Assembly: GCA_023247705.1 (NCBI GenBank)
Contig: JAHFFY010000006.1
Span: 6,623 to 70,622 of the forward strand
Length of the DNA: 64,000 nt
Direction: 5' to 3'
Origin: Candidatus Omnitrophota bacterium
GTDB taxonomy: Bacteria > Omnitrophota > Gorgyraeia > Zapsychrales > JAHFFX01
Part shown: one piece after another, positions 40,763 to 61,122 of the stretch
Layout: every line of letters starts with the position of its first letter
Numbering within the stretch: position 1 is the first letter of the stretch
Made by a program: the position numbers and the translations under genes
The notes under the pieces: generated by a model
What the model was told of the DNA's origin: nothing
Databases searched by the model: none
The model's input: the letters and a program-made list of their open reading frames with translations, nothing else

Positions 40763-40797
40763 GTTTTTCATCCTTTTTTTATGAGCGAAAGTCTACG

Positions 40798-44694: not shown

Positions 44695-44793
44695 AAATTT
44701 CAAATCACAAATAAATTCCAAAATACAAACATCCTATTTAAAAATCGGTCTTTGGGATTTAGACATTGTGAATTGTTTGTGTTTTAAAAAATT

Positions 44794-45936: not shown

Positions 45937-45950
45937 AAGAGAGTCTTACG

Positions 45951-46742
45951 ATGTTAAAACCGAGAATGATCCCCTGTTTATTATTAAAAGGCAACGGACT
46001 GGTCAAGACGGTGCAGTTTAAAGACCCGACCTATGTCGGTGATCCCATCAACACGTTTCGTATCTTTAATACCAAGGAAGTCGATGAGATTATTTTACTT
46101 AACATCGCTGCGACGCGCAGACAGGAATCATTTCCGTTAAACCTCTTAAGCCGGATTTTCGAAGAATGTTTTATGCCGTTGACGTATGGCGGCGGGATTA
46201 AAAATTTGGACGATATGAAGAGAATTTTTAATACCGGGGTGGAAAAGGTGGCGGTGAACAGCGCGGTCGCCGGAAATTTTTCATTGATTCAAGAGGCGGC
46301 GCAGGCTTTCGGCAGCCAGAGCATCATCGTGTCCATGGATGTTCGTCAGGAAAAAGATCGTTCCTACGGGATTTACAGCGAGGGAGGAACAAAATTAATA
46401 TCGAATGATCCGGTCGGGTTCGCCCGGGCCATGGAAGCCCAGGGTGCCGGGGAGATCCTTTTGAATTCGATCGACCGGGACGGGACGATGCAAGGTTATG
46501 ATGTCGATTTGATCCAATCGATATCGGACAGTGTTAATATCCCGGTCATCGCCTGTGGTGGGGCGGGGAGTCTCGATGATTTCGGCAAGGCGGTTTATCA
46601 AGGGCATGCCTCCGCAGTGGCCGCAGGGAGCTTGTTTGTTTTTCACGGGCGGCGGCGGGCGGTTTTAATCAGTTTTCCAACGAGGCAGGAACGGGAAACG
46701 TTGTTTAAAGAAGAGATCGATTATCATGCGCATCGTTGTTGA
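45951..46742 (+). CDS. HisF-like imidazole glycerol phosphate synthase cyclase-subunit homolog (WbuZ-like)
   Basis: The HisF fold signature runs throughout (IPCLLLKG.., TYGGGIK, IPVIACGGAGS). Confidence 0.75.
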   Translation: MLKPRMIPCLLLKGNGLVKTVQFKDPTYVGDPINTFRIFNTKEVDEIILLNIAATRRQESFPLNLLSRIFEECFMPLTYGGGIKNLDDMKRIFNTGVEKVAVNSAVAGNFSLIQEAAQAFGSQSIIVSMDVRQEKDRSYGIYSEGGTKLISNDPVGFARAMEAQGAGEILLNSIDRDGTMQGYDVDLIQSISDSVNIPVIACGGAGSLDDFGKAVYQGHASAVAAGSLFVFHGRRRAVLISFPTRQERETLFKEEIDYHAHRC

Positions 46743-47763
46743 CATCAATCATCCGGCCCACGTGCATTTTTTCAAGCATTTCATTTGGACGATGCAAAAA
46801 AAAGGGCATGAGCTGTTGATCACCGCAAGCGACAAAGATATCGCATGCCAATTGTTATCCAATCTGCAGTTCGCTTATTTGAATTTGGGACGGTACGGGA
46901 AGACATTTCTCAGGAAATTGATCAATATTCCGGTCATGGATTGGAAACTTTATCGTGCGGTCAAACATTTTAAGCCGGATATTTTTTTGGGTTTGGCGTC
47001 GGTGCGTGCGGCGCATGTCGCGGCTCTTTTGAAAAGAAAATGTATCAATTTCGATGATACGGAAAATGGCACGGCGGAGGTCGCGCTTTATTTGCCGTTT
47101 GTTCACCGTGTGTGCACGCCGTCCTGTTATCAAAAAAGATTGGGTCCGAAACAGATCCGTTACGCGGGGTATCACGAGTTGGCTTATTTGCATCCCGATT
47201 GTTTTGCGCCGGACCCTTCGATTTTGAATTTATTGGGCGTGAACAAAGAAGAGAAATTTGTCGTGATGCGTTTTATTTCCTGGCAGGCGGTGCATGATAT
47301 CGGACATCAGGGATTATCGCTGGATATGAAAAGAAAAGCTGTGAAAGAATTTTCACGTTATGCGAAGATTTTTATCACTTCAGAATCCCCGCTGCCGGCG
47401 GATTTGGAGGCGTATCGTATTAAAATCCCTCCGGAAAGAATCCATCACGCGTTGGCGTACGCGGCGTTGTGTTACGGCGAGAGCGCGACGATGACCTCCG
47501 AAAGCGCGGTCTTGGGAACACCAGCGATCTTTTTAGATAATGTCGGCCGCGGCTACACGGATGAAGAAGAAAAGCGCTACGGCGCTGTTTTTAATTTTAC
47601 CGAATCGATAGAAGACCAACAAAAATCCATCGACAAAGGGATTGCATTGTTGACAACAGACCGCCTTAAAGCCGTCTGGCAGGACAAAAGATCACGGTTG
47701 CTGAAAGAAAAGATCGATGTGACCTCCTGGATGATTGAGTTGGTTGAAAAAGAAATGGGTTAA
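46726..47763 (+). CDS. DUF354-family protein (putative GT-B-like transferase)
   Basis: The N-terminus MRIVVDINHPAHVHFFKHFIWTMQKKGHELLITA matches the characteristic DUF354 start. Confidence 0.5.
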   Translation: MRIVVDINHPAHVHFFKHFIWTMQKKGHELLITASDKDIACQLLSNLQFAYLNLGRYGKTFLRKLINIPVMDWKLYRAVKHFKPDIFLGLASVRAAHVAALLKRKCINFDDTENGTAEVALYLPFVHRVCTPSCYQKRLGPKQIRYAGYHELAYLHPDCFAPDPSILNLLGVNKEEKFVVMRFISWQAVHDIGHQGLSLDMKRKAVKEFSRYAKIFITSESPLPADLEAYRIKIPPERIHHALAYAALCYGESATMTSESAVLGTPAIFLDNVGRGYTDEEEKRYGAVFNFTESIEDQQKSIDKGIALLTTDRLKAVWQDKRSRLLKEKIDVTSWMIELVEKEMG

Positions 47764-47864
47764 GTTAAGGATGGGGATTGGGGCGACGATGGGCGGTTTG
47801 GCCGGCGATGGAAGTCCAACAGCCAAACCGCCCGGGAGTCCTCCACAATAACACGAAAGCGACT

Positions 47865-49688
47865 ATGTGCGGCATTTGCGGTTTCTATACCACTTTTAAA
47901 ACCAATGACGAAGATATCCATCTCGTTGAAGCGATGAATCACCGGCAACGGCATCGCGGTCCGGATGACGAAGGTCTGTTTGTCGATGAACAATGCGTTT
48001 TGGGGCACCGGCGTCTGGCGGTGATCGATCTTTCGAAAGACGGCCATCAGCCTTTTTTTTCCGAAGATAAACGTTACGTGTTGATCTATAACGGCGAAAT
48101 TTATAATTATATCGAGCTTCGTCGGGAATTGGAGTCTTTGAATTGTGTTTTTCACACAAAGACGGATACGGAGGTGCTGCTGAAATCCTATCAGCAGTGG
48201 GGAATTTCGTGTTTGCACCGTTTTAACGGCATGTTCGCTTTTGCAATTTATGACACGCAAAAGCGCACGTTATTGCTCGCCCGCGACCGGTTCGGGGTGA
48301 AACCGCTTTATTATATTCATCTGGGCTCGCATTTTTATTTTGCCTCCGAGATCAAATCCTTGAGGCTGGTTCCTTGTTTAAAGCCGTCTGTTCGTTATCA
48401 GAGTCTTTTTGATTATCTGGTCTTTAACCGGACGGATATTTATGATGAGACATTTCTGGAAGGGATCAAAAGAATACCGAAAGGGCACTATGGTTTTTTA
48501 AACAAAGATTTATTTCAATTGACCCAATGGTGGGACGCGGACCATTATTTAAACAAACAGGGTTCGGTTGATTTCAAAGAAGCCATCCAAAAACTCGAGG
48601 AATTGCTGATCTCGGCGACGCATTTGCGAATGAGAAGTGATGTGACGGTCGGCTCGTGCTTAAGTGGCGGATTAGATTCCTCGATCTTGACGGGAATCCT
48701 TTTTACGCACTGTAAAGCCCGGGACGATTATCCCGCGTTCACTTCCTCCCTCCCCGGCCACCAGCTTGACGAAACAAAGTATATTGATTTTTTAAATCAC
48801 CGCTATCCTTTTAAGAACTATCGCACCTATCCGACCGCTCAATCGGCTTATCAGAACTTTAATGATTTTATTTTTGCTGTCGAAGAACCGGTTGGCGACG
48901 CCACATTTTACGCCCAGTATGAGGTCATGCGTTTAGCCAAAGAAAACGGAGTGACTGTTTTACTAGACGGGCAAGGGGCGGATGAAAGTTTTGCCGGATA
49001 TCAATATTTTCACGGGTTTTATCTGAACGGTTTATTGCGAAAAAGAAGATATGGTCCTTTTTTAAAGGAGTTGACGAATAGTTTGCTGCGGTCGCAAAAA
49101 GAGTTTTATCTGGAAACTTTGGCGTTTCGGGTTCTGCCCGATGATTTTAGAAAAAAGATGCTTCTGAAAACATTGCCGTTTTTGGACCGCGATTTTTTTT
49201 ATCAGTATATCGATTCGAGCTTGATCTATAAAAAGTTTTTCGAGGCAGATGATCTGAACACGAGCCTGGTGCGCCATTTTCAATTTAAGCTGGAACACCT
49301 TTTGCGCATCGAGGACCGGACCTCCATGGCTTTTTCACTGGAAGCAAGACTTCCGTATCTCGATTATCGTTTGGTTGAATATGTTTTAGGACTGCCGGAA
49401 TTTTACAAGATCAAAAACGGCCAGACCAAATATCTGCAAAAAAAATCCGTAGGCTGCTACACTGTACCGGAGATTTTAAACAGGCGGGACAAGATCGGCT
49501 TCGGGATCCCAACGAGCGAGTGGATGAACACGCCGGCCTGGAAAGAGCTCAGCCAAGAAAATTATTCGGAATTACAAACAGTTTTTCCGAAAGTATTTCG
49601 TAAAGACCGGCCATTGCCCGAGGGCGGATCGCACCGCTGGAAGATGAATCAATTGGCGGCATGGAAGCAAATGATATTGGTTTCTTGA
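47865..49688 (+). CDS. asnB: Asparagine synthase (glutamine-hydrolysing)-family amidotransferase
   Basis: Ntn MCGICGF start. Synthetase-domain PP-loop SGGLDSS. Start moved to the internal ATG at 47865. Confidence 0.8.
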   Translation: MCGICGFYTTFKTNDEDIHLVEAMNHRQRHRGPDDEGLFVDEQCVLGHRRLAVIDLSKDGHQPFFSEDKRYVLIYNGEIYNYIELRRELESLNCVFHTKTDTEVLLKSYQQWGISCLHRFNGMFAFAIYDTQKRTLLLARDRFGVKPLYYIHLGSHFYFASEIKSLRLVPCLKPSVRYQSLFDYLVFNRTDIYDETFLEGIKRIPKGHYGFLNKDLFQLTQWWDADHYLNKQGSVDFKEAIQKLEELLISATHLRMRSDVTVGSCLSGGLDSSILTGILFTHCKARDDYPAFTSSLPGHQLDETKYIDFLNHRYPFKNYRTYPTAQSAYQNFNDFIFAVEEPVGDATFYAQYEVMRLAKENGVTVLLDGQGADESFAGYQYFHGFYLNGLLRKRRYGPFLKELTNSLLRSQKEFYLETLAFRVLPDDFRKKMLLKTLPFLDRDFFYQYIDSSLIYKKFFEADDLNTSLVRHFQFKLEHLLRIEDRTSMAFSLEARLPYLDYRLVEYVLGLPEFYKIKNGQTKYLQKKSVGCYTVPEILNRRDKIGFGIPTSEWMNTPAWKELSQENYSELQTVFPKVFRKDRPLPEGGSHRWKMNQLAAWKQMILVS

Positions 49689-49753
49689 TTACTGATGTCC
49701 CTCCCCCTTTACGGGGGAGGATAGGTGGGGGGAACAAGATCGGGGAGAAAAGA

Positions 49754-50944
49754 ATGGACGTTACGAGTCAGCACCCGAATTATCAAAACCTTCTCGAAAA
49801 CATTGTAGCCTCGGCCAAAGAAAAAGATTACGCCGGTTATGGCAAGTTTGACGCGTTGAACAGTCCTGTTCTCGAAGTCATGTCTTTGAATGATCCGTGG
49901 TTGCGGTTGATCTTGATTCAGCTCGTCAAGGAATGCCCGTTTCATGTCCGTCCGTTTTTGGGGGTGCGGATTTCGCGTAATCCGAAAGGCATTGCGCTGT
50001 TCGCGCGCACGTATTTGTTTTTGTATCAATTGACGCAAAAAAAAGAATTCCTGACAGAGGCGCGCAATCTTTTGGACTGGCTTCTCGCCAATCCTTCGCC
50101 GGATCAGGACCATCTGTGCTGGGGATACAATTTTATCTGGCAGGACATTCCTCCGTTTTTGCAGAACCGTCATGAGCCCAACTGCATCGTGACGATCTTC
50201 GCCGGTGAGGCGTTTGTTCACGCGTATCGGGTGACACGGGAGGATCAATATTTAAAGACCGCGCGTAACATCGCGGATTTTATTCTTAGAGATTTACCGG
50301 TTTTATATGAAAATAGAGAAGAGCGGGGCATTGGTTATATTTTAGGCCCAGCCGCCTCGATCGTTTTGAACAGCCAGGTTTTATCCGGCGCTTTGTTGAC
50401 CAAGATCGGGAAACATACCGGCGAAAAAGAATTAATCCAGGACGCGGTCAAACAGTTAAATTATACCTTTAACCGCCGGACGGAATACGGCGCCTGGTAT
50501 TACACCGATCCCCCGGGAAAATCCCCGATCCGCCATGACAATTATCATACCGGAGGGATCCTGGATGGTTTTCTTGAATTTTTTGAAGAGACAAAAGACG
50601 ACCGGTATCAGAATGGGTATTGGCAGGGCCTGGATTATTATCAACGTCATTTGTTTGAAAAAGACGGAGCACCGCGCTGGATGAGCGACCGACGTTATCC
50701 CTACGATGTCCATGGGGCGGCACAGGGAATTATCTCGTTTACCAAGGCGGGCCGTTATAAAAAAGAATACCGTCCGCAGGCCAGGATGATCCTGGATTGG
50801 ACGATTCAATATTTGTATCGAAAGAAAACGCGGGATTTTATTTACCGGCAGGGGCGATTTATGAAATGGAATTATTCTCTGATGCGCTGGTGCAACGCCT
50901 GGATGGCCCGGGCGCTGGCGGAATTTTGTATTGTGGTAGAATGA
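49754..50944 (+). CDS. Hypothetical protein, possibly an alpha/alpha-toroid polysaccharide-modifying enzyme
   Basis: ORF with a GGGGAGAAAAG SD. No confident family assignment. Rich in W/Y residues. Confidence 0.35.
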   Translation: MDVTSQHPNYQNLLENIVASAKEKDYAGYGKFDALNSPVLEVMSLNDPWLRLILIQLVKECPFHVRPFLGVRISRNPKGIALFARTYLFLYQLTQKKEFLTEARNLLDWLLANPSPDQDHLCWGYNFIWQDIPPFLQNRHEPNCIVTIFAGEAFVHAYRVTREDQYLKTARNIADFILRDLPVLYENREERGIGYILGPAASIVLNSQVLSGALLTKIGKHTGEKELIQDAVKQLNYTFNRRTEYGAWYYTDPPGKSPIRHDNYHTGGILDGFLEFFEETKDDRYQNGYWQGLDYYQRHLFEKDGAPRWMSDRRYPYDVHGAAQGIISFTKAGRYKKEYRPQARMILDWTIQYLYRKKTRDFIYRQGRFMKWNYSLMRWCNAWMARALAEFCIVVE

Positions 50945-50995
50945 GGGGTTTTCGAATATTGCGTCATTGACGAGCGATATTAAAAAGAGGTCTTT

Positions 50996-51766
50996 ATGTT
51001 CATCGGTCGGGAATTGTGTTTGGATGAATCGTTGTCAAAACTGGAACGGGCGTATATCTGGCTTTTGGGCGTGCCGATCAACGGGTTACGCATCCGGGCA
51101 CGGCGTATCCTGCCGCATATTTCCGGAAAATATAAATCCATCCTGGACGCGGGTTGCGGCCCCGGCGTATTTTCTTTTACCCTTGCCAAGTTCTTGCCTC
51201 AAAGCGCGATCACCGGCATTGATGTTGATCAGAATTTACTGGAACGAAATAAAACCATCGCCCAAAAAAGCAAATTGCGGAATTGTTCGTTTATATATCA
51301 AGACATTAATATGATGTCGTTCAAGGAACAATATGATCTGGTTTTATGCGTGGACAACCTGGAACATATTGAAGATGATCAGAACGCTTTAAAAAATTTC
51401 TATAATGCCCTACAATACGGAGGTGATTTGATCCTGCATGTGCCGGCCTATTACCGGCGTTGGCTTTTTTTCAGATGGGCGGTCAATTTTGATGTCGATG
51501 GCCATTTCCGGCCCGGCTACACCAAAGAAGCGCTCGAAGAAAAGATAAAATTAGCTGGTTTTACCGTTAAAGAGCTTTATTATACTTATGGGTGGCTGGA
51601 GACCGTCACCAATAATATTTCTTATTTAATTACCGGAGCAAGGATGAGAAGAAAGCATTTGTATGCTTTTGTTTTTCCTGTCCTGAATATTATTTCTTTT
51701 TTGGGAAGAAATTCGAAACCTAAACGTGGTGCTGGAGTATTGGTGTTGGCAAGAAAGGAGTCCTAA
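50996..51766 (+). CDS. Class I SAM-dependent methyltransferase
   Basis: Motif I ILDAGCGPGVFS and a post-I acidic residue. Confidence 0.8.
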   Translation: MFIGRELCLDESLSKLERAYIWLLGVPINGLRIRARRILPHISGKYKSILDAGCGPGVFSFTLAKFLPQSAITGIDVDQNLLERNKTIAQKSKLRNCSFIYQDINMMSFKEQYDLVLCVDNLEHIEDDQNALKNFYNALQYGGDLILHVPAYYRRWLFFRWAVNFDVDGHFRPGYTKEALEEKIKLAGFTVKELYYTYGWLETVTNNISYLITGARMRRKHLYAFVFPVLNIISFLGRNSKPKRGAGVLVLARKES

Positions 51767-53295
51767 TGGAAACGTTAACGCTTCCTTTGGTGCAGGAACA
51801 ACCGGTTCAAACGAAAGAAATCAAGATTAAAGAGGTTGTTTTAGTTGCGCCTGGAAATCCCCGCATACAATTTGGTGCGATCATTAATCTTCCCTTAGCG
51901 TTGTTGTGTCTGGCCGGCTGGCTGCGCCGCGATGAACGGTTTAAAGATAAAATTCGTATTCTGGATATGAATATCCAGAAGATAACGGAGGCGGATTTTA
52001 AAGATGTTGCGCTGATTGGTCTCACCGCGATCACCGGACACGATATCGAATTTGCCCTGCAGGCCGCGCGCATGGCCAAGACCGTCAACCCCAAGGTCAT
52101 CGTCGTTTGGGGAGGAATTCATGCCTCGTTGATGCCGGAACAAACCATCGCCCATGAGCTCGTGGATGTGGTGGCGATCGGTGAAGGCGAAGAAACTTTC
52201 CGGGAACTGGTGGAATCGGTGATGGAGGAAAAAGATCTGGCCGGCATCCCGGGCACCTGGGTCAAAAAGGACGGAAATATCGTGAAGGGCCCGGCGCGTC
52301 CGATCGTTGATATGAACACCCTGCCTTTGCCCGCCTATGATTTGGTGAATGTCGGTCATTATCATAATATCCAGCGTCAATTCAATTATCAATCTTCGCG
52401 CGGCTGTCCTTACCGTTGCGCTTTTTGTTATAACGTGGTTTTTACCGCCCGCAAATGGCGCAGCAAGAGCGCTCCCAAAATTATTCAGGAATTAAGATAT
52501 CTCCACGAAACCTACGGCGTCATGAATTATATTATGGACGACGATGAATTTTTGATTAACATTAAAAGAGCCCAGGAAGTGTTTCAGGGTATTATCGACA
52601 ATCATCTTAATTTTACGATGACGATTTCCTGCCGCCTGGATATGGTGCAAAGGATTCCTGAGGAAATGCTGCATACGATGAAAAAAGCCGGGGTCAAGCA
52701 GATTTTTTTCGGGGCCGAATCCGGGTCCGAGACCATCTTAAAAGATATTTTAAAAGACCTGAAAACCGAAGACATCCTCAAAGGCGCAAACCGCGTGTGC
52801 AAGATCGGCATTCGGCCGGTTTTGAGTTTTATGAGCGGTTTTCCAACGGAAACGTTTGACGATTTCAAGCAGACGCTGGAAATCATTGAAAAATTATGGC
52901 AGGGGCACCCGTTGATCACGGTCAACGGGATTTTTCCATTTAATCCTTATCCGGGGACCGAGTTATATCACGCGGCGATTAAGGCAGGCTTTAAGGCCCC
53001 GAAAACTTTAGAAGAATGGGGCAAATGGGAATTCCAATATGACCCAGACCATCCTTGGCTCGACAAGAAAAAGAGACGCTGGATGCAGATCGCTTTTTAT
53101 ATCGTCCGGTTTAAATATTATCTCAAACGCTTGGAAGACCGTTATGATAATGACCTGAAAGTCAGGATGCTGAAGGTTTTGGTTTCACCGCTTTTACTTT
53201 CCGCTAAAATCCGCTGGAACCAAAAATGGTTCGCCGCGGCCTGGGAATGGGACCTGTTTGCCTTCATAGTGCGCAAGACCTTCCGTTATTTATAG
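51766..53295 (+). CDS. B12-binding domain radical SAM protein
   Basis: SRGCPYRCAFCYN (CxxxCxxC) after an N-terminal B12-binding-like domain. Confidence 0.8.
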   Translation: METLTLPLVQEQPVQTKEIKIKEVVLVAPGNPRIQFGAIINLPLALLCLAGWLRRDERFKDKIRILDMNIQKITEADFKDVALIGLTAITGHDIEFALQAARMAKTVNPKVIVVWGGIHASLMPEQTIAHELVDVVAIGEGEETFRELVESVMEEKDLAGIPGTWVKKDGNIVKGPARPIVDMNTLPLPAYDLVNVGHYHNIQRQFNYQSSRGCPYRCAFCYNVVFTARKWRSKSAPKIIQELRYLHETYGVMNYIMDDDEFLINIKRAQEVFQGIIDNHLNFTMTISCRLDMVQRIPEEMLHTMKKAGVKQIFFGAESGSETILKDILKDLKTEDILKGANRVCKIGIRPVLSFMSGFPTETFDDFKQTLEIIEKLWQGHPLITVNGIFPFNPYPGTELYHAAIKAGFKAPKTLEEWGKWEFQYDPDHPWLDKKKRRWMQIAFYIVRFKYYLKRLEDRYDNDLKVRMLKVLVSPLLLSAKIRWNQKWFAAAWEWDLFAFIVRKTFRYL

Positions 53296-53305
53296 TCTAG
53301 AGGGA

Positions 53306-53956
53306 TTGGCGTTGAACGAGCATCCATGGAAAATCCTGAATCAGCGCGTTAAAGAAGAACCTTACCACGTCGTTCCGGGGGTTCTTTCTTTGTTAAACGG
53401 CTATTGGCATAAGTTAAAATTTTTTTTATCAGGCAAAAGGGTCAAGATCGGAAAATGCTTTCGGGTCTACGGAAAATTCAGAGTCATCGGGCCGGGGCAA
53501 GTCGAGATCGGCGATCATTGTTTGTTTGAATGTTCGATTTTAGGGCCGGCGGTTTTTTATACTGAGTTTCCTGATGCGGTGATCCGTTTAGGGGACCATG
53601 TGACATTAAATGGCCTGGTCATGCAATGTTATCAAAATATTGCGATCGGTGATTATTGTTCTCTGGCCGACGCATTTATTACCGATTCGCAGAATCATCA
53701 TTTGTCCGCCGATCGGCGGTTTTTATCCAATCGCACGATCCCCAAGGCCCCGGTGGTGTTAAGCCGGAATATTTGGGTCTGCTCCAAGGTCGTTATTTTA
53801 CCCGGGGTATTGATCGGTGAGAACAGTGTGATCGGGGCTTGTTCTTTAGTTCGCAGCGATGTCGCGGCGAATAGTTTTTATTCCGGAAATCCAGCGCGCT
53901 TTATTCAAAAGATTCCGCCATCCAATCATGAAAAGTTTAAACCAGCAAAGTCTTAG
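53306..53956 (+). CDS. Hexapeptide-repeat (left-handed beta-helix) acetyl/acyltransferase
   Basis: Repeated [LIV]-G-x-x-x-x hexads, for example IGDHCLF, LGDHVTLNG, IGDYCSL, IGENSVIGA. Confidence 0.65.
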   Translation: MALNEHPWKILNQRVKEEPYHVVPGVLSLLNGYWHKLKFFLSGKRVKIGKCFRVYGKFRVIGPGQVEIGDHCLFECSILGPAVFYTEFPDAVIRLGDHVTLNGLVMQCYQNIAIGDYCSLADAFITDSQNHHLSADRRFLSNRTIPKAPVVLSRNIWVCSKVVILPGVLIGENSVIGACSLVRSDVAANSFYSGNPARFIQKIPPSNHEKFKPAKS

Positions 53957-54959
53957 TCCCTCAACAAATTCCTTTTTATCGGTTGATCCTTTGATCCGGA
54001 AAAAAGTTTTTTTTCTTCTGCGTTTGAGCGTGACGCTGGTTTTAATCCTCTTTCTGTTATCTTCCGTCGGATTCAATGCATTTTGGAAGACGATGACGCT
54101 CATAACGCCTTTTTGGGGAATCTTGGCTGTCATTGCTTCTGTTGTGCTTTTTTTTCTCTCGAGCATCAATATTTGGATATTATTAAAAGGATTACGGCCG
54201 TTGGCCTATCAGAAATTTTTTCGGCACTATCTTTACGGTTTTATTGTGACGTTGGTGGCACCCGGGCAAATGGGGGACGCTTCGTTGACGTTATTTCTGA
54301 AGAAAGAAGGGATCCCAATCCGGCAAAGCAGTGTCGTTTATATTTTGGATAAAAGTATGACATTTTTGATCTTCATGTCGGTGAGCGCGTGGGGGGCGGG
54401 GCTTTTATTTGAACCATTGCGCGGGATCCGTTGGCTGGTCATGGTGCCATTGGCGGGATTTGTTCTTTTTTGGACGATGGCGTATTGTTCGTTGAGTTTT
54501 TTTGCGAGATTAAATATTTTTAAGAAAATGGACCAATGGCTGGAAGGCGCGAAAGATACACTCGATATCTTGAAGACACGCTGGGACATTTTGGCGGTCA
54601 ACTTCATCCTGGCCTGGGTGAAATGGGGTGTGCTGAGCCTTTGTTATTTTTTCGCTTTCCTGGCGTTTCAAAAATGGGTCGATTGGCCGGCGATCGGTAT
54701 TATTCCTATTTTATCGTCGTTGGCGGGATATATTCCAATCTCTTTAAGCGGGATCGGCATCACGGAAATGGCGGCGGTTTATCTATTCTCTTTACAGGGG
54801 GTGGAAAAATCTGTCGTGTTAAGCGCGTATATTTTCCTGCGATTGATCCAGTTTGCGATGGCGGGGATTGTTTTATTGTTTTTCGAAAAGAGTAATTCTT
54901 TTGAAAAAGAATCCATTCTGAATGAACCTGCAGTCTTGGCGGATGGCGAATCAAGATGA
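53928..54959 (+). CDS. Flippase-like/MprF transmembrane-domain (UPF0104) protein
   Basis: 8 TM helices. The start was chosen at the MKSLNQQ ATG to limit overlap with the preceding gene. Confidence 0.45.
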   Translation: MKSLNQQSLSPSTNSFLSVDPLIRKKVFFLLRLSVTLVLILFLLSSVGFNAFWKTMTLITPFWGILAVIASVVLFFLSSINIWILLKGLRPLAYQKFFRHYLYGFIVTLVAPGQMGDASLTLFLKKEGIPIRQSSVVYILDKSMTFLIFMSVSAWGAGLLFEPLRGIRWLVMVPLAGFVLFWTMAYCSLSFFARLNIFKKMDQWLEGAKDTLDILKTRWDILAVNFILAWVKWGVLSLCYFFAFLAFQKWVDWPAIGIIPILSSLAGYIPISLSGIGITEMAAVYLFSLQGVEKSVVLSAYIFLRLIQFAMAGIVLLFFEKSNSFEKESILNEPAVLADGESR

Positions 54960-56938
54960 ATCGAGAACGAAATAATTCCTCCGGACCGATTGACACCGAA
55001 CATACAATCGACCTTGAGCTGATGAAGCAGGCTCTTTTGATCCGCTGCGTTGAAAATCGGCTTTTGGAATTGTTTTCGCAGGGAAAGTTGAATGGCACAA
55101 TACATACTTGCGTTGGTCAGGAGTTTGTCGGGCTGGCGTTTGCCGGTCAGGCCGACGCCCGCGATATTATTTTCTCGAACCACCGCTGCCACGGGCATTA
55201 TCTGAGTTTCACCAAAGATGTCGACGGTCTGGTGGCGGAGTTGATGGGGAAATCCACCGGCGTTTGCGCTGGGATCGGAGGCAGCCAGCATCTTTGTAAA
55301 AATAATTTTTATTCAAACGGGATCCAGGGGGGAATCGTTCCGGTGTGCGCCGGGATGACGTTGGCACAAAAGCTGAATCGCACTGGTCAGATTGGCATGG
55401 TTTTTTTAGGCGATGGGATGTTGGGCGAAGGAATTGTGTATGAGACGATGAATATTGTGGCCAAGTGGGACATTCCGCTTTTATTTGTTTGCGAAAATAA
55501 TTATTATGCCCAATCGACGCCTCAGGATATTAATTTTGCCGGAGATATTTTAAGACGGGCCGGGGCGTTCGGGATCAAAACCTGTACGAGTCATATTTGG
55601 ACCACGGGCGGTTTATTCGAACAAGCGCGCGAATCGATCGCGTATGTGCGCCGGGAGCGCAAACCGCTTTTTCATTGTGTCGAAGCGTATCGTCTCAATC
55701 CCCATTCCAAGGGCGATGACGACCGCGACCCGCAGGAGATCGAACGATATCGAAAAAAAGATCCGCTGAATATTTTTTCCCAGGAAAATCCTGCGCTTTA
55801 TCAGGAGTATTTAAAAGAGATCAATCTTCAAATCGATTCGGCCATTGCGCGCGCGGACCACGCGCAAGCATTGACGCTTGATCAATATTGCGATCATCCC
55901 ACCAGATTAACACCGGCGACAACCTGGCAGGCGGTTGAGACCGTGGATGTCAGGCAAGTGGATTTGATTAACGGATTTTTCAAAACAAAGATGAAGGAAG
56001 ATCCGAAGATTTTGTTTATCGGTGAGGACGTACTTTCTCCTTACGGAGGCGCCTTCAAGGTCGCGCGGGATTTGTCGCAGCTTTTCCCCCGTCAGGTTTT
56101 TTCGACACCGATCAGTGAAGCGGCGATCACGGGATTGGCCAATGGGCTTGCCCTCGGAGGATTTAGGCCGTTTTTGGAAATTATGTTCGGTGATTTTGTC
56201 ACATTGTGTATGGACCAGCTTCTTAATCACGCGTCGAAATTTTATCACATGTACAATAAGCAGGTGAAATGTCCATTGGTCATCCGGCTTCCAATGGGAG
56301 GCCGCCGCGGTTACGGGCCCACTCATTCCCAGACGCTGGATAAATTGGTGCTGGGGTTGCCGAATATCAAGACCGTTGCGTTAAACACGCTGATCAATCC
56401 GCAATCGATTTATGAGACGATTTTAGATGAGGAAGAACATCCGGTCATTGTGATCGAGAATAAACTGGACTACGGACGCAAGATCGCCGCCAAGAGAATC
56501 GCGAATTATGTTTATGAAGAAACCGACGGCGATTATCCGGTGGTCCGCATCCGGCCGGTGTCTTCTTTTCCGACCGCGACGATTGTGTGTTACGGCGGGA
56601 TGGTGGAGATCGTGCTGGAGACGATCGATCTTGTGTTCGAAGAACTGGATTTAAAACCGGAGCTCTTGGTTCTCTCCCAAATTTCTCCAATTGATGTGCG
56701 AGAAATCATCGCGTCAGTTGAAAAAACAAAACGGTTATACGTCATTGAGGAAGGTGTCATGGCCGGCGGTATAGGCAGCGAGATCATCGCCGGCGTTACG
56801 GAAATGATGAATGAAAAAATCGTCGCCCGGAGAATCGCCGCGTTGCCGGTTCCGATTCCTTCGGCCAAATCACTGGAGAGCCAAATCCTTCCGACACAAC
56901 AATCTATTTTAAAGGCGATCGCGCAATCACTACAATGA
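54956..56938 (+). CDS. Fused E1 alpha/beta component of a TPP-dependent 2-oxoacid (pyruvate/acetoin-type) dehydrogenase
   Basis: N-terminal half is E1-alpha, with a TPP motif (GDG..N region, LFVCENNYYA). C-terminal half is E1-beta (KILFIGEDVLSPYGGAFKV, transketolase-like C-terminus). Confidence 0.8.
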   Translation: MNRERNNSSGPIDTEHTIDLELMKQALLIRCVENRLLELFSQGKLNGTIHTCVGQEFVGLAFAGQADARDIIFSNHRCHGHYLSFTKDVDGLVAELMGKSTGVCAGIGGSQHLCKNNFYSNGIQGGIVPVCAGMTLAQKLNRTGQIGMVFLGDGMLGEGIVYETMNIVAKWDIPLLFVCENNYYAQSTPQDINFAGDILRRAGAFGIKTCTSHIWTTGGLFEQARESIAYVRRERKPLFHCVEAYRLNPHSKGDDDRDPQEIERYRKKDPLNIFSQENPALYQEYLKEINLQIDSAIARADHAQALTLDQYCDHPTRLTPATTWQAVETVDVRQVDLINGFFKTKMKEDPKILFIGEDVLSPYGGAFKVARDLSQLFPRQVFSTPISEAAITGLANGLALGGFRPFLEIMFGDFVTLCMDQLLNHASKFYHMYNKQVKCPLVIRLPMGGRRGYGPTHSQTLDKLVLGLPNIKTVALNTLINPQSIYETILDEEEHPVIVIENKLDYGRKIAAKRIANYVYEETDGDYPVVRIRPVSSFPTATIVCYGGMVEIVLETIDLVFEELDLKPELLVLSQISPIDVREIIASVEKTKRLYVIEEGVMAGGIGSEIIAGVTEMMNEKIVARRIAALPVPIPSAKSLESQILPTQQSILKAIAQSLQ

Positions 56939-58257
56939 ACCAATTCGAAGACATCAAAATCCCTCAAGAGAACCTCAACGACGAATTCGTTAAGATCGTA
57001 GATTTTTTTTGTGCAGATGAGTCGCCGGTGAAAACAGACGATAAGCTATTGGCCATCGAAACTTCCAAGGCGACGGTAAATTTATACGCCGTTACTTCTG
57101 GATTTGTGAAATATCTGTGCCGCGAAGGAGAGGAGGTTAAGGTCGGCGCGACGATCGCCAAGATCTATAAAGATTTGGCTGCCTTAAGAAATGATTCTGG
57201 AAAAAGTAGTCTTAATGTTTTACCAGCTGCCCGTTCCCAATTATCCGCCAAGTTCTCGAAGGCTGCGCTGAATTTTATTTCAAAGTATGCGATCAATGAA
57301 CTTGTTTTTGAACACAAGGATTTTGTGACGTTGGATGATGTCCGGGCGTATTGGAACAAATCGAGAGATATTCCAGTCGATCGAGCGCAAGACGATTTGG
57401 GGTCCGCAAATTCAGCGGTCAACGGCGTTGAGTATAAAGAAATTCCACCGAGCAAAAGAAAAGAGATCGAAATTCTTTCGGATGTCCAGCAGTCAGGATT
57501 GACCAGCACGGTCAGTGTTCTGGTTGATACTTTCTCGATCGGCGAGAGGATGAAATCTTTGAGAATTTTCAAAGATTCTTTGTTGCCGTGGATTATTTGT
57601 GAAATCTACGATCTGATCGCGCAATATCCGGAGTTTAATGCGTTTTATCAGGACCAGCGTGTCGGGTATTACAAGGCAATTCATCTTGGCTTGGCCGTGA
57701 ATATCAACGATGGACTGAAGCTTTTACGATTACCCGATTTGAGCAAGCAGCAAATTAAAAATGTGGAAGAGGCGGTCTTTTCGCTGATCAATAAATATCT
57801 GGATAAAGCCCTTTCGCTGGAAAATTTAAGTCAAACCACATTCACGTTGACCGATCTTTCTTCGTCGGGGGTGGATTTTTTTATTCCTTTGGTTGCGCAA
57901 AGACAATCTGCGATCCTTGGTATTGGGAAAGTTGATCGCTTGACCCAGCAATGCCGGCTGACGCTTTGTTTTGATCACCGGGTCGCGGATGGAAAAGCGG
58001 CTGCGGATTTTTTAAGCGATTTAAAAGCGCGCATCGAAAAGGCGGTGCCGCAACGAGCTCATGAGGCCCGCAGCGTTCTAGCCCAAGGATTTCTCGCGCG
58101 GTCCGCAAAGAAACAGAATGCTCCTTCGCCGATGTGCTTTCGCTGTTTCAAAACGTTAAGTGAAGATCAGGAACACCAGGGTGTCGGTTTCCTCAAGGTG
58201 CTGGCGCATGACGGGCAGGAACGGTGGATTTGTATAACTTGTTTACAGGGATATTAG
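56935..58257 (+). CDS. E2-like acyltransferase: lipoyl/biotinyl-like N-domain, 2-oxoacid dehydrogenase catalytic domain, C-terminal Cys4 ribbon
   Basis: Lipoyl-like LAIETSKATVNL. Catalytic FDHRVADGKAAADFL (DHRxxDG). Terminal CFRCF..CITC. Confidence 0.7.
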   Translation: MNQFEDIKIPQENLNDEFVKIVDFFCADESPVKTDDKLLAIETSKATVNLYAVTSGFVKYLCREGEEVKVGATIAKIYKDLAALRNDSGKSSLNVLPAARSQLSAKFSKAALNFISKYAINELVFEHKDFVTLDDVRAYWNKSRDIPVDRAQDDLGSANSAVNGVEYKEIPPSKRKEIEILSDVQQSGLTSTVSVLVDTFSIGERMKSLRIFKDSLLPWIICEIYDLIAQYPEFNAFYQDQRVGYYKAIHLGLAVNINDGLKLLRLPDLSKQQIKNVEEAVFSLINKYLDKALSLENLSQTTFTLTDLSSSGVDFFIPLVAQRQSAILGIGKVDRLTQQCRLTLCFDHRVADGKAAADFLSDLKARIEKAVPQRAHEARSVLAQGFLARSAKKQNAPSPMCFRCFKTLSEDQEHQGVGFLKVLAHDGQERWICITCLQGY

Positions 58258-58267
58258 TCTAAAAATA

Positions 58268-58912
58268 ATGGATAAGACTCAGAAAATCAAAGAGATCGTG
58301 GCGACATTCTTGAAGACGACTTCGGAGCGTGTCGCTGAAGATACGATCATTGATAACACAACGATCGTCGGATCGATCTGGATCCATCGCATGTATGCTG
58401 TCTTGGCCAGGGATCTTAATGTTGATATCCAGGATTATCAGCGGATTAAAACGTTCGGTGAACTGGTGCATCGTTTGAACGGCGGGCCTGAAGCAATTAA
58501 ACAAGAATCGTGCAAGGAGGAGCTAGATTTTTCCGGATTATTATCGTCGCAAGGAAGTGATCCGGTGAACACCAGTCAACCGATCCAGGCCGGGATTGAC
58601 ATGGAAGACATCGACCATCTGCCTACCGTGAAAGATTTCAGAAAAGATCCGTTCTACGTCAGGAATTTTAGCGCGAAGGAGATCGAATATTGTCTGGCCC
58701 AACCGAACCCTTTGCAGAGTTTCGCCGGGCTCTTTGCCGCCAAAGAAGCGATTATCAAAGCGGATAATGTTTATAAAAAAGTTCCATTCCACCAACTGGA
58801 AATTGTTCACGATCAAAACGGTAAACCGTCCTTTGCCGATTTTTCTATCTCTATCTCACATAGTCGTCATCAGGTGGTTGCGTTGGCGATCCGATTAAAT
58901 CTCACTATTTGA
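58268..58912 (+). CDS. Fusion of an acyl-carrier-protein-like domain with holo-ACP synthase (AcpS-type 4'-phosphopantetheinyl transferase)
   Basis: The C-terminus has AcpS motifs (GIDMEDI, FAAKEAIIKA, ISISHS). The N-terminal ~75 aa form an ACP-like helical bundle with a candidate Ser in VGSI. Confidence 0.6.
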   Translation: MDKTQKIKEIVATFLKTTSERVAEDTIIDNTTIVGSIWIHRMYAVLARDLNVDIQDYQRIKTFGELVHRLNGGPEAIKQESCKEELDFSGLLSSQGSDPVNTSQPIQAGIDMEDIDHLPTVKDFRKDPFYVRNFSAKEIEYCLAQPNPLQSFAGLFAAKEAIIKADNVYKKVPFHQLEIVHDQNGKPSFADFSISISHSRHQVVALAIRLNLTI

Positions 58913-61122
58913 GCCCGGCAAGTTTTTTTAAAAAAATGCGCCTTACACGGTTTTTTATAAAACACTTGATTTTTTTCATCCCTATTTTTTTGTGGCTTTT
59001 TATTTATCGAAAAGCCCTGATGGGGGGACCTTGCATGACCCGCCACGGCATGGATTATTATTTCCTCATAAAATATTATATGGAAAATTTGATTCGCGGC
59101 GTTTTTCCGATGTGGGACCCCTTTCTTTTTTGGGGGAAGGCGGATGATCTGGATATGCGGTTTATCGGCGAGTTCAATCCGTTCTTGTGGCTATATCCTT
59201 TGTTTTTAAAACTTGGTTTTGCCCCGCCGCAAAGCTTTATCTTTTACGCAATCAGTTATTTTTTCATCGGGTTAATCGGGTTCTATCTGTTGGCTAAAAG
59301 AATTTTCAAGGATCGGCTTCTGGCATGTTGCGCGTTCGTATTGTTCTTGTTTTCCTCGGAAGTGGCCCCGATCTTTAATAACTTTTGCATCGCGTTATTG
59401 GTTGTTCCCGCGGTTTGGTTTTTTTATTTCCTGGTCGCTTTCGCACAGGAGCCGGACCAGAAATTTTTTTTGGGGTTGGTCTTTTCGGTGATGATCCTTG
59501 CGATCACTTACATGCCGTTTTATTGGTTGACTGTCTTGATATTTTTCCTGATCAGCTTTATCGTTTTATATCCGAAGGAAACCAAAACGATTTTGGGGCG
59601 CTGGATGAATTTTATCGTCCGAAATAAATTGATCGTACTGTTCGGTGTCTTGGCGATTGGTCTGGCCATGATCCCCGGCATCCTGTGGTATTGTTCGGCG
59701 CAGCGGGGGGATTTTGTTTTCTCATGGCGGCATGCCGGGGCAGAAGATCCTAACGCGGCCAGCGTGAATATTGAAACCATCAATGCCGGCGGGATTATCG
59801 CGCCGTATATTTTCAAATCATTGTTTTCCCATTTAGATCAGGCGGATCTTTTTTTCTATATTCCCGGAGTTTGTTTTGTCATTCTGGCGTTAGCCGTGCT
59901 TAATCGTTTGAACCGGGTATCGATCATTTTATTTGTGGTCGGTTTTATTATTTTCCTGATTACCCTCGCGGACTTGACACCGGTGCACCGGCTGCTTTAT
60001 CAGTCGGTTTATTTTTTCCGGCTCTTTCGAAACATTTTTTATTTTCTTTATATGGCGATTCCGGTTTTCATTTTATTCTGTGTAGAACAATTGCGTTTGT
60101 TATTCAACAATCAGCCGATTGATACGAAGACGAAAATTTATAAGCTGGGTGGCATTTTTCTGCTGCATTTGGGTTTCTTGTGGTTTCTTTACCGGCAGGA
60201 AGATATCATTCCTTCGTTTTATATTACGGTGGGGTTAAGTTTTATTTTTTTTGCTTCCTATTATCTCGGCTGGATTAAGCGGGAAAGACCTGTGTTCGCG
60301 GCTACACTGATCATTCTCCTGGTTTTATCACCGGTGGACGTTTTCAGGTCCTGTCTTAAAAACGGATTTTCGATCGTTGACTGGAAACCGAAGGACCGTT
60401 TTTATCCGCGGTTTTCTTTTCTGCGCCCTTTTAAAAAAGACGAGGGCGATTTTTATAAAGGAAAAAGTCCGCAGGACGTCCAGGACGCGTCGGGATTTGC
60501 TTCATGGAAATATTCGGGCTATCCGGCGTCTTATCTGTTGCATGAGCACATTAATCACGATATTCTGGAGACTTATGTCCGGCACAAATTCGTTGTATAC
60601 GATAACGCACAAACTCGGGACGGACAGCAATTTGATTTTAAAGTAATGGAAAAGGTTTTTGCACAAAGAAAGAACATCGCTTTTGTCTTTCCGGACCCAT
60701 TGCGCCCGATCGCTTCTTCATCGGCGTCTTCGCTTGATTCAATCTCAGGCGAACCTTTATTTGTGGAAGGAAACTCGTCTGAATTCCAGCTTGATGTCTT
60801 CGACATCAATCGCGTTCAAGTGAAAACGATGTTTCCGGTACAAAAATTTCTTGTTTATAATGACAACTATGATCCGGCCTGGCAGGTTTTTGTTAATGGC
60901 CGACGGGAAGAGATCTTGCGGGCCAATCTGGCGTTTAAAGGAATTTGGCTTAAGCCGGGCAAGAATGTGGTTGAGTTCCGATACGGATCATGGCCGCGGC
61001 ATTTTGTTAATTTTTTTCTTTTGTTCTTTTTTAATGGTTTCTTTCTTTATCTTGTTGGGCGGTGGATTTTATTTTACCGCGGCAACACAGGGATCAAAGA
61101 TGTTCAGATGAAGACCGCGTAG
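58909..61122 (+). CDS. Large polytopic membrane protein, YfhO/GT-C-like putative glycosyltransferase
   Basis: 737 aa with many TM helices. The N-terminal loop FPMWDPFLFWGKADD is reminiscent of YfhO. A soluble C-terminal domain is present. Confidence 0.4.
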   Translation: MSPASFFKKMRLTRFFIKHLIFFIPIFLWLFIYRKALMGGPCMTRHGMDYYFLIKYYMENLIRGVFPMWDPFLFWGKADDLDMRFIGEFNPFLWLYPLFLKLGFAPPQSFIFYAISYFFIGLIGFYLLAKRIFKDRLLACCAFVLFLFSSEVAPIFNNFCIALLVVPAVWFFYFLVAFAQEPDQKFFLGLVFSVMILAITYMPFYWLTVLIFFLISFIVLYPKETKTILGRWMNFIVRNKLIVLFGVLAIGLAMIPGILWYCSAQRGDFVFSWRHAGAEDPNAASVNIETINAGGIIAPYIFKSLFSHLDQADLFFYIPGVCFVILALAVLNRLNRVSIILFVVGFIIFLITLADLTPVHRLLYQSVYFFRLFRNIFYFLYMAIPVFILFCVEQLRLLFNNQPIDTKTKIYKLGGIFLLHLGFLWFLYRQEDIIPSFYITVGLSFIFFASYYLGWIKRERPVFAATLIILLVLSPVDVFRSCLKNGFSIVDWKPKDRFYPRFSFLRPFKKDEGDFYKGKSPQDVQDASGFASWKYSGYPASYLLHEHINHDILETYVRHKFVVYDNAQTRDGQQFDFKVMEKVFAQRKNIAFVFPDPLRPIASSSASSLDSISGEPLFVEGNSSEFQLDVFDINRVQVKTMFPVQKFLVYNDNYDPAWQVFVNGRREEILRANLAFKGIWLKPGKNVVEFRYGSWPRHFVNFFLLFFFNGFFLYLVGRWILFYRGNTGIKDVQMKTA

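Follow-up and report, generated by a model that had tools for sequence, protein, structure and literature searches.

In the biosynthesis of quinocarcin (QncN/QncL/QncM), naphthyridinomycin (NapB/NapD/NapC) and dnacin (DinU/DinS/DinT), a thiamine diphosphate (ThDP) enzyme and a lipoyl-bearing E2 protein load a C2 glycolyl unit onto a dedicated acyl carrier protein (ACP; PMC6335953, PMC7570522). The scleric acid cluster, with SclQ1-4 and the clustered phosphopantetheinyl transferase (PPTase) SclP, follows the same carrier-loading logic (PMC6335953). For the pepteridine pathway of Photorhabdus, a pyruvate dehydrogenase (PDH)-like E1 and a fusion of E2 with a nonribosomal peptide synthetase (NRPS) have been proposed to prime a thiolation (T) domain directly with an acyl group derived from a 2-oxo acid, instead of coenzyme A (CoA), the cluster being without an E3 and borrowing that of the host (PMC5384830). 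Here we describe a cassette of related components, namely a fused E1, an E2-like protein and an ACP joined to its own holo-ACP synthase (AcpS), which is found in a 64,000-nucleotide stretch of DNA from a Candidatus Omnitrophota bacterium (assembly GCA_023247705.1, contig JAHFFY010000006.1, positions 6,623 to 70,622). This whole stretch is referred to below as the window, and coordinates given without a locus name are counted from its first nucleotide. From domain content, residue conservation and gene order we lean, on balance, towards reading the cassette, together with a hexapeptide acyltransferase, as a dedicated acyl-donor module for the decoration of surface glycans.

Organization and proposed function of the cassette

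The three genes lie within a long co-directional run and are arranged as follows:

54956–56938, + strand: fused E1 alpha-beta protein (660 aa)
56935–58257, + strand: E2-like dihydrolipoyl acyltransferase (440 aa)
58268–58912, + strand: ACP::AcpS protein (214 aa)

An earlier note on this DNA, made from the sequence without database searches, had described three coupled genes with 4-nt overlaps. Direct reading of the junctions revealed such an overlap for E1 and E2 (ATGA); E2 and ACP::AcpS do not overlap and are separated by a 10-nt spacer (TAG tctaaaaata ATG). The flanks of the cassette also overlap by 4 nt, the upstream membrane gene with E1 (ATGA) and ACP::AcpS with the downstream gene (TTGA).

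We propose that E1 would decarboxylate a small 2-oxo acid and reductively acylate the predicted lipoyl-lysine, K45, of E2. H348 of E2 would then pass the acyl group by trans-thioesterification to the phosphopantetheine thiol on S36 of the carrier domain, instead of to CoA, the carrier having been made holo in cis by its fused AcpS domain. The resulting acyl-ACP would be used by a WcaF/LacA-like hexapeptide acyltransferase to modify a sugar of the polysaccharide or glycolipid specified by the surrounding genes, and the dihydrolipoyl-E2 would be re-oxidised by a lipoamide dehydrogenase (E3) encoded elsewhere, or in cis as in one related locus. We infer this direction of acyl flow, with the ACP as acceptor, from what the domains are, from the conservation of catalytic residues and of gene order, and from variant loci that contain fusions or an E3.

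Conservation of the cassette across genomes

Relatives of the ACP::AcpS protein numbered at least 169 in an indexed search and 328 representatives at 50% identity (E<=1e-30) in an exhaustive search. A scan for this protein with one genome per species gave 79 loci, most of them in Chitinophagaceae (Niastella, Pinibacter, Segetibacter, Ferruginibacter, Puia and Flavihumibacter). Other hosts of the cassette are Bacteroidales, Saprospiraceae, Phycisphaerales, Fibrobacterota and a deltaproteobacterium, the Omnitrophota locus having been reached by protein look-up. Synteny was counted in the 63 loci with enough upstream sequence. E1 is directly upstream in 61 of these and E2 in 62, and the order E1-E2-ACP::AcpS is kept; the script had counted E2 in 53, the other nine being, by their printed coordinates, artefacts of over-extended open reading frame starts. 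We conclude that E1-E2-ACP::AcpS is a conserved module and not a one-off arrangement. The AcpS domain of this family is always accompanied by the extra carrier domain.

There are two true exceptions to the synteny, L081 and L006, the second of which is treated with the variant loci below. L081 (9400–10447, on a Ferruginibacter chromosome) has a hexapeptide gene followed by a truncated AcpS remnant (match to aa 106–210) and is without E1, E2 and the carrier domain; the core of the cassette appears to have been deleted.

The usual gene order in Chitinophagaceae is glycosyltransferase (GT) 4 – hexapeptide gene – E1 – E2 – ACP::AcpS – GT2 – two sugar epimerases/dehydratases – CpsB, with an AT3-family membrane acyltransferase inserted between the hexapeptide gene and E1 in about 18 loci, and with Wzy-like, AsnB-like and pectate-lyase-fold genes near these cassettes. 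Hexapeptide-linked cassettes are always found among glycan genes (GT4, GT2, sugar epimerases, CpsB, Wzy-like, AsnB-like). The conserved cassette set includes no ketosynthase, adenylating enzyme or other loader or user of an ACP, so that by elimination E2 is left as the sole candidate for loading and the hexapeptide enzyme as the sole candidate for use. In addition, wherever the genes of a locus were listed with their Pfam families, none of the proteins carried a Pfam NRPS domain. Public names for the components are generic, the E2 relatives appearing as '2-oxo acid dehydrogenase subunit E2' and the carrier as 'PPTase superfamily', and neither NCBIfam nor Pfam holds a cassette-specific model.

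The ACP::AcpS protein

Two domains were recognized in the product of the third gene:

58268–58483, + strand: atypical acyl-carrier domain (aa 1–72), with predicted phosphopantetheine site S36 (codon 58373–58375)
58580–58912, + strand: AcpS-type 4'-phosphopantetheinyl transferase domain (about aa 105–214; Pfam ACPS 3.6e-13, aa 109–195)

The carrier domain contains the motif (G/S)S(I/V)x(L/I)HRMYA, in which 24 diverse orthologues all keep S36, H40 and Y43, and R41 and M42 are conserved in at least 90%. When a profile of these 24 N-termini was compared with the PDB, the six best matches were all acyl carrier proteins, with S36 aligned on the serine of their DSL motif. The AlphaFold2 (AF2) model of the protein (predicted local distance difference test, pLDDT, 87) places helices at residues 3–15, 36–50 and 63–70, so that S36 stands at the N-terminus of helix 2 in a small helical domain. 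We accept this region, on its profile alignment and predicted fold, as an atypical carrier domain. Foldseek searches with the model were dominated by the AcpS domain and are uninformative on the carrier domain.

The AcpS domain matched TIGR00556 above cut-off (50.6 bits), and its best matches in sequence and fold were the phosphopantetheinyl transferase domain of fungal fatty acid synthase (FAS) and bacterial AcpS, with Foldseek TM (template modelling) scores of about 0.7–0.8 on the target. GxD (D111) and FAAKEAxxK (K159, E160 and K164) are invariant. The earlier description of an acyl-carrier-like domain fused to its own holo-ACP synthase agrees with these results, with the qualification that the carrier is atypical; the alignment it had called for to locate a phosphopantetheine-serine puts S36 on the DSL serine.

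Most of the Chitinophagaceae ACP::AcpS proteins (P0009, P0014, P0017, P0020, P0065 and others) have an additional hydrophobic stretch at the C-terminus, probably a membrane anchor, which the window protein and its closest relatives do not have.

The E2-like protein

E2 possesses Biotin_lipoyl (Pfam 2.3e-07, aa 18–77) and 2-oxoacid_dh (9.9e-31, aa 211–369) domains. It matched E2 cores in the PDB by sequence at 8e-16, and Foldseek with its AF2 model returned E2 cores and full-length E2 models down to 1e-25; the best NCBIfam model reached 89 against a cut-off of 722 (the equivalogs for E2 of PDH, 2-oxoglutarate dehydrogenase and acetoin dehydrogenase). The AF2 model (pLDDT 85) shows a beta lipoyl domain (aa 3–78), a disordered linker, a three-helix domain (aa 109–144), a second linker, the catalytic domain (aa 165–369), a long helix (aa 373–389) and a well-modelled ribbon (aa 401–437). 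The sites of interest are:

57067–57069, + strand: codon of K45, predicted lipoyl-lysine in the ETSK motif (K in 71/71 orthologues)
57259–57366, + strand: small three-helix domain (aa 109–144) at the position of a peripheral-subunit-binding domain (from the AF2 model and a conserved pattern)
57427–58041, + strand: E2 catalytic (chloramphenicol acetyltransferase-fold) domain, with the H348 codon at 57976–57978
58135–58242, + strand: C-terminal Cys4 ribbon, C401-x2-C404...C433-x2-C436 (all four Cys invariant in 71/71; AF2 pLDDT about 92)

Conservation was counted over 71 non-redundant orthologues, all of which adjoin an ACP::AcpS gene. Besides K45, the lipoyl motif retains S44 and E42 in 70 of the 71, which makes ETSK a signature of the family and not a private substitution. 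The catalytic motif, FDHRVTEG in most relatives, reads FDHRVADG in the window protein: F346, D347, H348 and G353 are invariant, R349 is kept in 70/71, and the acid at position 352 is Glu in 63 sequences and Asp in two, the window protein included. A further motif, TFT(I/L)TDLS, was evident in a 53-sequence alignment, in which F303, T304, D307 and L308 are invariant and T302 and T306 are kept in at least 90%. The ETSKA lipoyl motif, the DHRxxDG domain and the CxxC..CxxC ribbon noted previously can all be read from the translation, and the lipoyl-lysine and the catalytic Asp and His, whose absence would have told against an E2, are in place throughout the family.

The three-helix domain (AF2 helices at residues 109–117, 122–125 and 133–144; block-mean pLDDT 76–94) has the pattern FS..A..L...F...DFV...DV, which is conserved among E2 orthologues. 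This segment is missing from the E2 of L006, the one E2 whose locus is without E1, and this supports the segment as an E1-binding module. From its position, its predicted fold and this loss, we regard it as a possible E1-docking module.

The fused E1

The earlier report of alpha and beta subunits fused in one 660-aa E1 is borne out by the presence of E1_dh (Pfam 1.4e-39), Transket_pyr (4.5e-22) and Transketolase_C (5.9e-17) in a single chain, with the alpha part at about aa 20–308 and the beta part at about aa 335–659. Orthologues are 52–62% identical to the window protein. The alpha half most resembles PDH E1 alpha of the mitochondrial type (about 121–123 bits; 59–81 bits for the alpha subunit of branched-chain 2-oxo acid dehydrogenase, BCKDH), and it scores as E1_dh/PDH E1 alpha and not as Transketolase_N. 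With NCBIfam, E1 reached 198 bits for TIGR03182 PDH E1 alpha (cut-off 394) and 176 for PDH E1 beta (cut-off 321), far below equivalog level. Its cofactor site is:

55409–55501, + strand: ThDP/Mg2+ motif GDG-x26-NN (aa 152–182; found by regular expression on the translation)

The residues of this motif are near-invariant in 65 E1 orthologues. The catalytic His of the alpha part is kept (YRLNPHS, aligned with YRYHGHS of human E1 alpha), and in the beta part both the Glu (TPISE) and the His (THSQ) are conserved. By these signatures the protein is a predicted PDH-type ThDP enzyme with an intact ThDP site.

Informative variant loci

In L090 (6067–11115) the fused E1 is followed by P0463, a single chain of 625 aa containing lipoyl, E2 catalytic, ACP-like (GSISLHRMYA) and AcpS domains and no Cys4 ribbon, and then by a 370-aa hexapeptide protein. 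Around this locus are genes for conjugation and defence (TraH, TraF, SSB and LmuB_C), which suggests that a mobile element may carry the cassette.

Three other E2 relatives without a ribbon (P0156, P0196 and P0234) have the same ETSK and FDHRVTEG signatures, with a fused E1 and a free-standing ACP of 74–84 aa as neighbours and no AcpS fusion; this ACP carries a WDSL motif in L088 and gave a PP-binding match in the other two loci. Among these is L089 (5769–12067), with the order ACP – E1 – E2 (P0196, ETSK) – E3 (Pyr_redox_2/dim) – LipB-like octanoyltransferase – LipA lipoyl synthase beside GT2 and GT1, which amounts to a self-contained lipoyl system among glycan genes. The E3, LipB-like and LipA genes in cis indicate that in this sister clade the ETSK lysine is lipoylated and the redox cycle operates.

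Taken over all these proteins, the Cys4 ribbon varies with the type of carrier: it is present in 71/71 E2 proteins accompanied by a separate ACP::AcpS protein, absent in 3/3 accompanied by a stand-alone ACP, and absent in the one covalent fusion, P0463. This co-variation fits a docking role, and the ribbon probably docks the ACP::AcpS protein. The suggestion that a private, self-phosphopantetheinylating carrier takes the place of CoA thus finds backing in the synteny, in the E2::ACP::AcpS fusion and in the co-variation of ribbon and carrier. Known structures of both AcpS-type enzymes and E2 cores are trimeric, which makes a threefold complex of E2 and ACP::AcpS plausible.

The two remaining variants differ at E1. 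L086 encodes E1 alpha and E1 beta separately; its ACPS gene follows E2 at a distance of about 0.9 kb, and farther along come a hexapeptide gene, a GT and Wzy. In L006 (4601–10651) the place of E1 is taken by an FkbH-like enzyme, an 85-aa ACP with a WDSL motif and a fusion of MaoC with a short-chain dehydrogenase/reductase, and the lipoyl-E2 (without aa 109–144), ACP::AcpS and the hexapeptide enzyme are kept.

Nature of the acyl group

The acyl group is most likely a C2–C3 unit such as acetyl, glycolyl or propionyl. As substrate, a 2-oxo acid is more in keeping with the E1_dh/PDH-alpha character of E1 than a ketose phosphate, and a private system would hardly be needed for plain acetyl. There are weak hints of a hydroxyacyl unit in the FkbH variant and in the methyltransferases that occasionally adjoin the cassette. 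An acyl or hydroxyalkyl unit had been considered in the earlier note; of these the acyl unit stands and the hydroxyalkyl unit does not, as E1 chemistry on lipoamide gives an S-acyl product.

The same observations bear on a strict counterpart of the Qnc, Nap and Scl systems, in which E1 would have transketolase activity towards ketose phosphates, glycolyl (hydroxyacetyl) would be loaded on the ACP, and the product would be a glycolylated, possibly O-methylated sugar. The component list does match that of the scleric acid cluster (E1 alpha, E1 beta, lipoyl-E2, ACP and PPTase), the E1 slot of L006 holds FkbH, which is the second known route to hydroxylated C3 units on ACP, and some loci have O-methyltransferase genes beside the cassette. 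However, the ThDP half of the window protein has the scores of an E1_dh/PDH E1 alpha, while the Nap and Din counterparts are annotated as two-component transketolases (a comparison by annotation, not by sequence), and the methyltransferases are of usually sugar-methylating types and occur in a minority of loci. We consider this pathway quite unlikely.

A more elaborate form of the acyl-donor module joins the docking and trimer observations: E1, the putative zinc-ribbon E2 and a trimeric, self-priming ACP::AcpS would form a threefold complex that loads an acyl group not made available as a CoA thioester, and a WcaF-like enzyme would use the acyl-ACP. The group may be, for example, glycolyl, propionyl or, in the FkbH variant, glyceroyl. 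We offer this version tentatively, as a serious possibility which falls somewhat short of an even chance.

The hexapeptide acyltransferase as candidate consumer

Upstream of the cassette lies the gene for the enzyme to which the acyl group would be delivered:

53306–53956, + strand: hexapeptide-repeat (left-handed beta-helix) O-acyltransferase of the LacA/Maa/WbbJ/WcaF type (Pfam Hexapep 5.6e-08)

With NCBIfam it matched WbbJ (6.3e-18), maltose O-acetyltransferase (1.9e-16) and the WcaF family (5.5e-15), all below equivalog cut-offs. The closest solved structures are O-acetyltransferases of the LacA/Maa type, the alignment with 3ECT covering the catalytic His region, and the GSHD of the catalytic His loop is conserved in the Chitinophagaceae orthologues. 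A hexapeptide protein of the same cluster is encoded no more than 6.5 kb from the carrier gene in 51 of 52 loci, and upstream of it in 48. This makes the enzyme a candidate consumer of the acyl-ACP. The earlier note had the unit attached by the neighbouring acetyltransferase and a GT-C enzyme; the former partner is conserved, whereas the latter, a YfhO-like protein, is specific to the window. As a general consumer the GT-C neighbour was rejected, since it is not conserved with the cassette.

Weighing the alternatives

A number of results weigh against the acyl-donor module as set out above. The best E-value of the carrier-domain profile in the PDB was only 0.008, the domain gave no match to Pfam PP-binding (PF00550) at E<0.01 and none in NCBIfam, and its helix 2 (SIWIHRMYAVLARDL; S-I-W-I-H-R-M-Y) is not acidic, unlike that of classical ACPs, which may be the reason why this carrier brings its own PPTase. 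A 27-sequence profile of E2 aa 100–146 found chance-level matches in the PDB and no peripheral-subunit-binding domain, nor was there a Pfam E3_binding match. The hexapeptide enzyme of the window is only 22–36% identical to its Chitinophagaceae orthologues, and its characterised relatives LacA, Maa and WcaF are, going by their names, users of acyl-CoA. In L006 the lipoyl-E2 is retained despite replacement of E1 by FkbH and a small ACP, which the simple model does not explain. Finally, E3 was sought with a PROSITE-like motif for class-I disulfide reductases and by tblastn with the E3, LipB and LipA of L089; neither the motif nor a homologue of E3, LipA or LipB was found in the 64-kb window, so that the absence of a nearby E3 reported earlier stands.

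E3 was likewise not found within ±10 kb in 85 loci, and neither the motif nor tblastn gave a match in the 88 loci other than L089. An E3 in the operon of related genomes, with a conventional CoA-linked role, had been named as a finding that would speak against a private carrier. L089 does have an E3 in the operon, but it also has a dedicated ACP, and the combination supports lipoyl redox cycling and not a conventional CoA-linked role. These results bear on the possibility that the genes encode a conventional catabolic 2-oxo acid or acetoin dehydrogenase which happens to lie inside a glycan island, the third gene being an unrelated housekeeping AcpS. The public annotation '2-oxo acid dehydrogenase subunit E2' and the resemblance of E1 to PDH E1 would agree with this. 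All scores, however, are far below NCBIfam equivalog cut-offs, the synteny with ACP::AcpS and the hexapeptide gene in polysaccharide loci is kept across phyla, E2 has the family-specific ETSK and Cys4 features, and the AcpS domain never occurs without its additional carrier domain. On these grounds and the absence of E3 around the searched loci we reject a conventional PDH or acetoin dehydrogenase, which appears highly improbable.

In another alternative, E1 and E2 would make an ordinary acyl-CoA, such as acetyl- or propionyl-CoA, locally for a CoA-dependent hexapeptide enzyme, and ACP::AcpS would serve another step, for instance by carrying some other substituent or by acting as the PPTase for a carrier encoded elsewhere. 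E2 keeps all the canonical catalytic residues, the hexapeptide enzyme belongs to a CoA-using family, and the ACP-like domain is atypical. Such an arrangement leaves unexplained the near-obligate adjacency of ACP::AcpS and E2, the single-chain E2::ACP::AcpS fusion, the co-variation of ribbon and carrier, and why cells that make acetyl-CoA would need a private E1 and E2; moreover, the loci share no further conserved enzyme that uses an ACP. We judge it unlikely, and continue to favour the acyl-donor module in which the carrier replaces CoA.

Neighbouring genes in the window

Two membrane protein genes flank the cassette:

53859–54959, + strand: polytopic membrane protein with an LPG_synthase_TM/flippase-like domain (Pfam PF03706 1.7e-29, TIGR00374 4.1e-14)
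58909–61122, + strand: large polytopic membrane protein, YfhO-like (GT-C; Pfam YfhO 7.8e-4, below cut-off), with a TTG start

The flippase-like gene is placed between the hexapeptide acyltransferase gene and E1 and is not part of the conserved cassette of other loci. Its start is uncertain: the first ATG gives a 98-nt overlap with the hexapeptide gene (53859–53956), and an in-frame ATG at 53928 one of 29 nt. Apart from the window, the cluster of the YfhO-like protein has L001 as its sole member, and L001 is a copy of this contig, which places the protein outside the conserved cassette.

Further upstream there is a co-directional sugar-modification operon (39710–53295). Its sugar genes code for a GFO-type oxidoreductase, a DegT aminotransferase, an ArnC-like GT2 and a PMT-like GT-C; it also encodes a WbpG-like PP-loop amidotransferase with HisF, the signature of an acetamidino sugar, as well as DUF354 and AsnB-like proteins, and further a GH88-like protein, a methyltransferase and a B12-radical S-adenosylmethionine (SAM) enzyme. 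On the opposite strand are a second B12-radical SAM gene (36257–37588) and a fusion of an epimerase with GT2 (37715–39505). Gene content in the window points to a modified amino-sugar glycan, built partly on a lipid carrier. None of the surrounding sugar genes (oxidoreductase, DegT, GT2, GT-C, WbpG/HisF, AsnB, radical SAM and others) is conserved with the cassette.

Elsewhere in the window, a CTP synthase (21506–23113) shares about 80% identity with many proteins assigned to Candidatus Omnitrophota, which places the window, part of a 75-kb contig, in an Omnitrophota genome. At 25347–28148 a 933-aa protein is encoded in which domains of eukaryotic type, HRM (hormone receptor) and thrombospondin type 1, were weakly matched, an unusual find in a bacterium. 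The 910-aa product of 2923–5655 has an N-terminal zf-HC2 anti-sigma zinc finger and vWF_A, VWA and YfbK_C domains.

Significance

Acyl substituents of polysaccharides and glycolipids shape recognition by phages and the immune system, the properties of biofilms and rheology in industrial use. Acyl-CoA is usually assumed to be the donor, and a ThDP/lipoyl/ACP module next to a sugar acyltransferase would, if our reading is true, add a new donor chemistry. It would extend the principle of an E1/E2 pair priming a carrier from a few actinomycete and Photorhabdus clusters to the primary envelope biology of Bacteroidota, Omnitrophota and other phyla, and would define a widespread, unannotated class of lipoyl-dependent acyl-ACP synthases dedicated to envelope glycans. 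It would also provide a new route of polysaccharide acylation, a new docking element on E2 and a possible source of glycan acyl substituents that are so far unexplained. The Cys4 ribbon and the ACP-AcpS in cis are relevant to how E2 cores choose their acceptors. Since the cassette occurs in cultured strains (Niastella, Pinibacter, Segetibacter and Ferruginibacter), the prediction can be tested directly.

The route had been called undescribed in the earlier note. This is too broad, for loading of a carrier by PDH-like E1/E2 with an E3 in trans has already been proposed or shown (PMC6335953, PMC5384830, PMC7570522); what appears to be undescribed is the glycan setting and this E1/E2/ACP::AcpS architecture. 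We found no E1/E2/ACP cassette in polysaccharide, O-antigen or nonulosonic-acid loci in the searchable literature, weak evidence given that most subscription journals lie outside its coverage.

Comparison with known systems

The closest counterparts are the Qnc, Nap, Din and Scl systems. Compared by component lists, all of their modules are present and adjacent in the cassette, namely E1-alpha-like and E1-beta-like parts, a lipoyl-E2 and a small carrier, with a PPTase as in scl; as proposed here, the carrier replaces CoA, and none of the gene lists consulted for those clusters contains an E3 (PMC6335953, PMC7570522). They differ in feeding NRPS condensation domains in actinomycete secondary metabolism, through ThDP subunits annotated as ketose-phosphate transketolases. 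In the window, by contrast, the ThDP half is of the E1_dh/PDH type, E1 alpha and E1 beta are fused, the ACP is fused to an AcpS-type PPTase and E2 has a Cys4 ribbon; the predicted consumer is a hexapeptide enzyme, and the loci are glycan loci of Bacteroidota, Omnitrophota and others. The pepteridine system resembles the cassette in that a PDH-like E1/E2 is proposed to prime a carrier with no E3 in cis, and its E2 and carrier share one chain, as in P0463. It is unlike it in having an NRPS T domain, a tetrahydropterin acceptor and transfer by a condensation (C) domain, with no AcpS fusion, Cys4 ribbon or glycan context.

The classical PDH, BCKDH and acetoin dehydrogenase complexes resemble the cassette in the fold and catalytic residues of E1 alpha and beta, in the succession of lipoyl, linker and catalytic domains in E2 and in the catalytic His. 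In contrast to them, the cassette has no E3 in cis, a Cys4 ribbon where the C-terminus of classical E2 mediates core assembly, ETSK in place of E(T/S)DK, an obligate linkage to a carrier, and sub-equivalog scores.

Parallels for other parts of the proposed route exist in envelope biology. In D-alanylation by Dlt, a dedicated carrier delivers a small acyl group to an envelope polymer, the carrier being loaded by an adenylating enzyme and a membrane-bound O-acyltransferase (MBOAT) being used, and LpxA and LpxD are hexapeptide-fold enzymes that take acyl-ACP donors, with the housekeeping ACP and long acyl chains. Unlike both, the cassette would rely on a lipoyl/ThDP loader. A carrier and an AcpS-type PPTase in cis are also found in the alpha subunit of fungal type I FAS; there they belong to a megasynthase of about 1900 aa, whereas here they form a free-standing didomain protein of 214 aa, many relatives of which carry a C-terminal hydrophobic tail.

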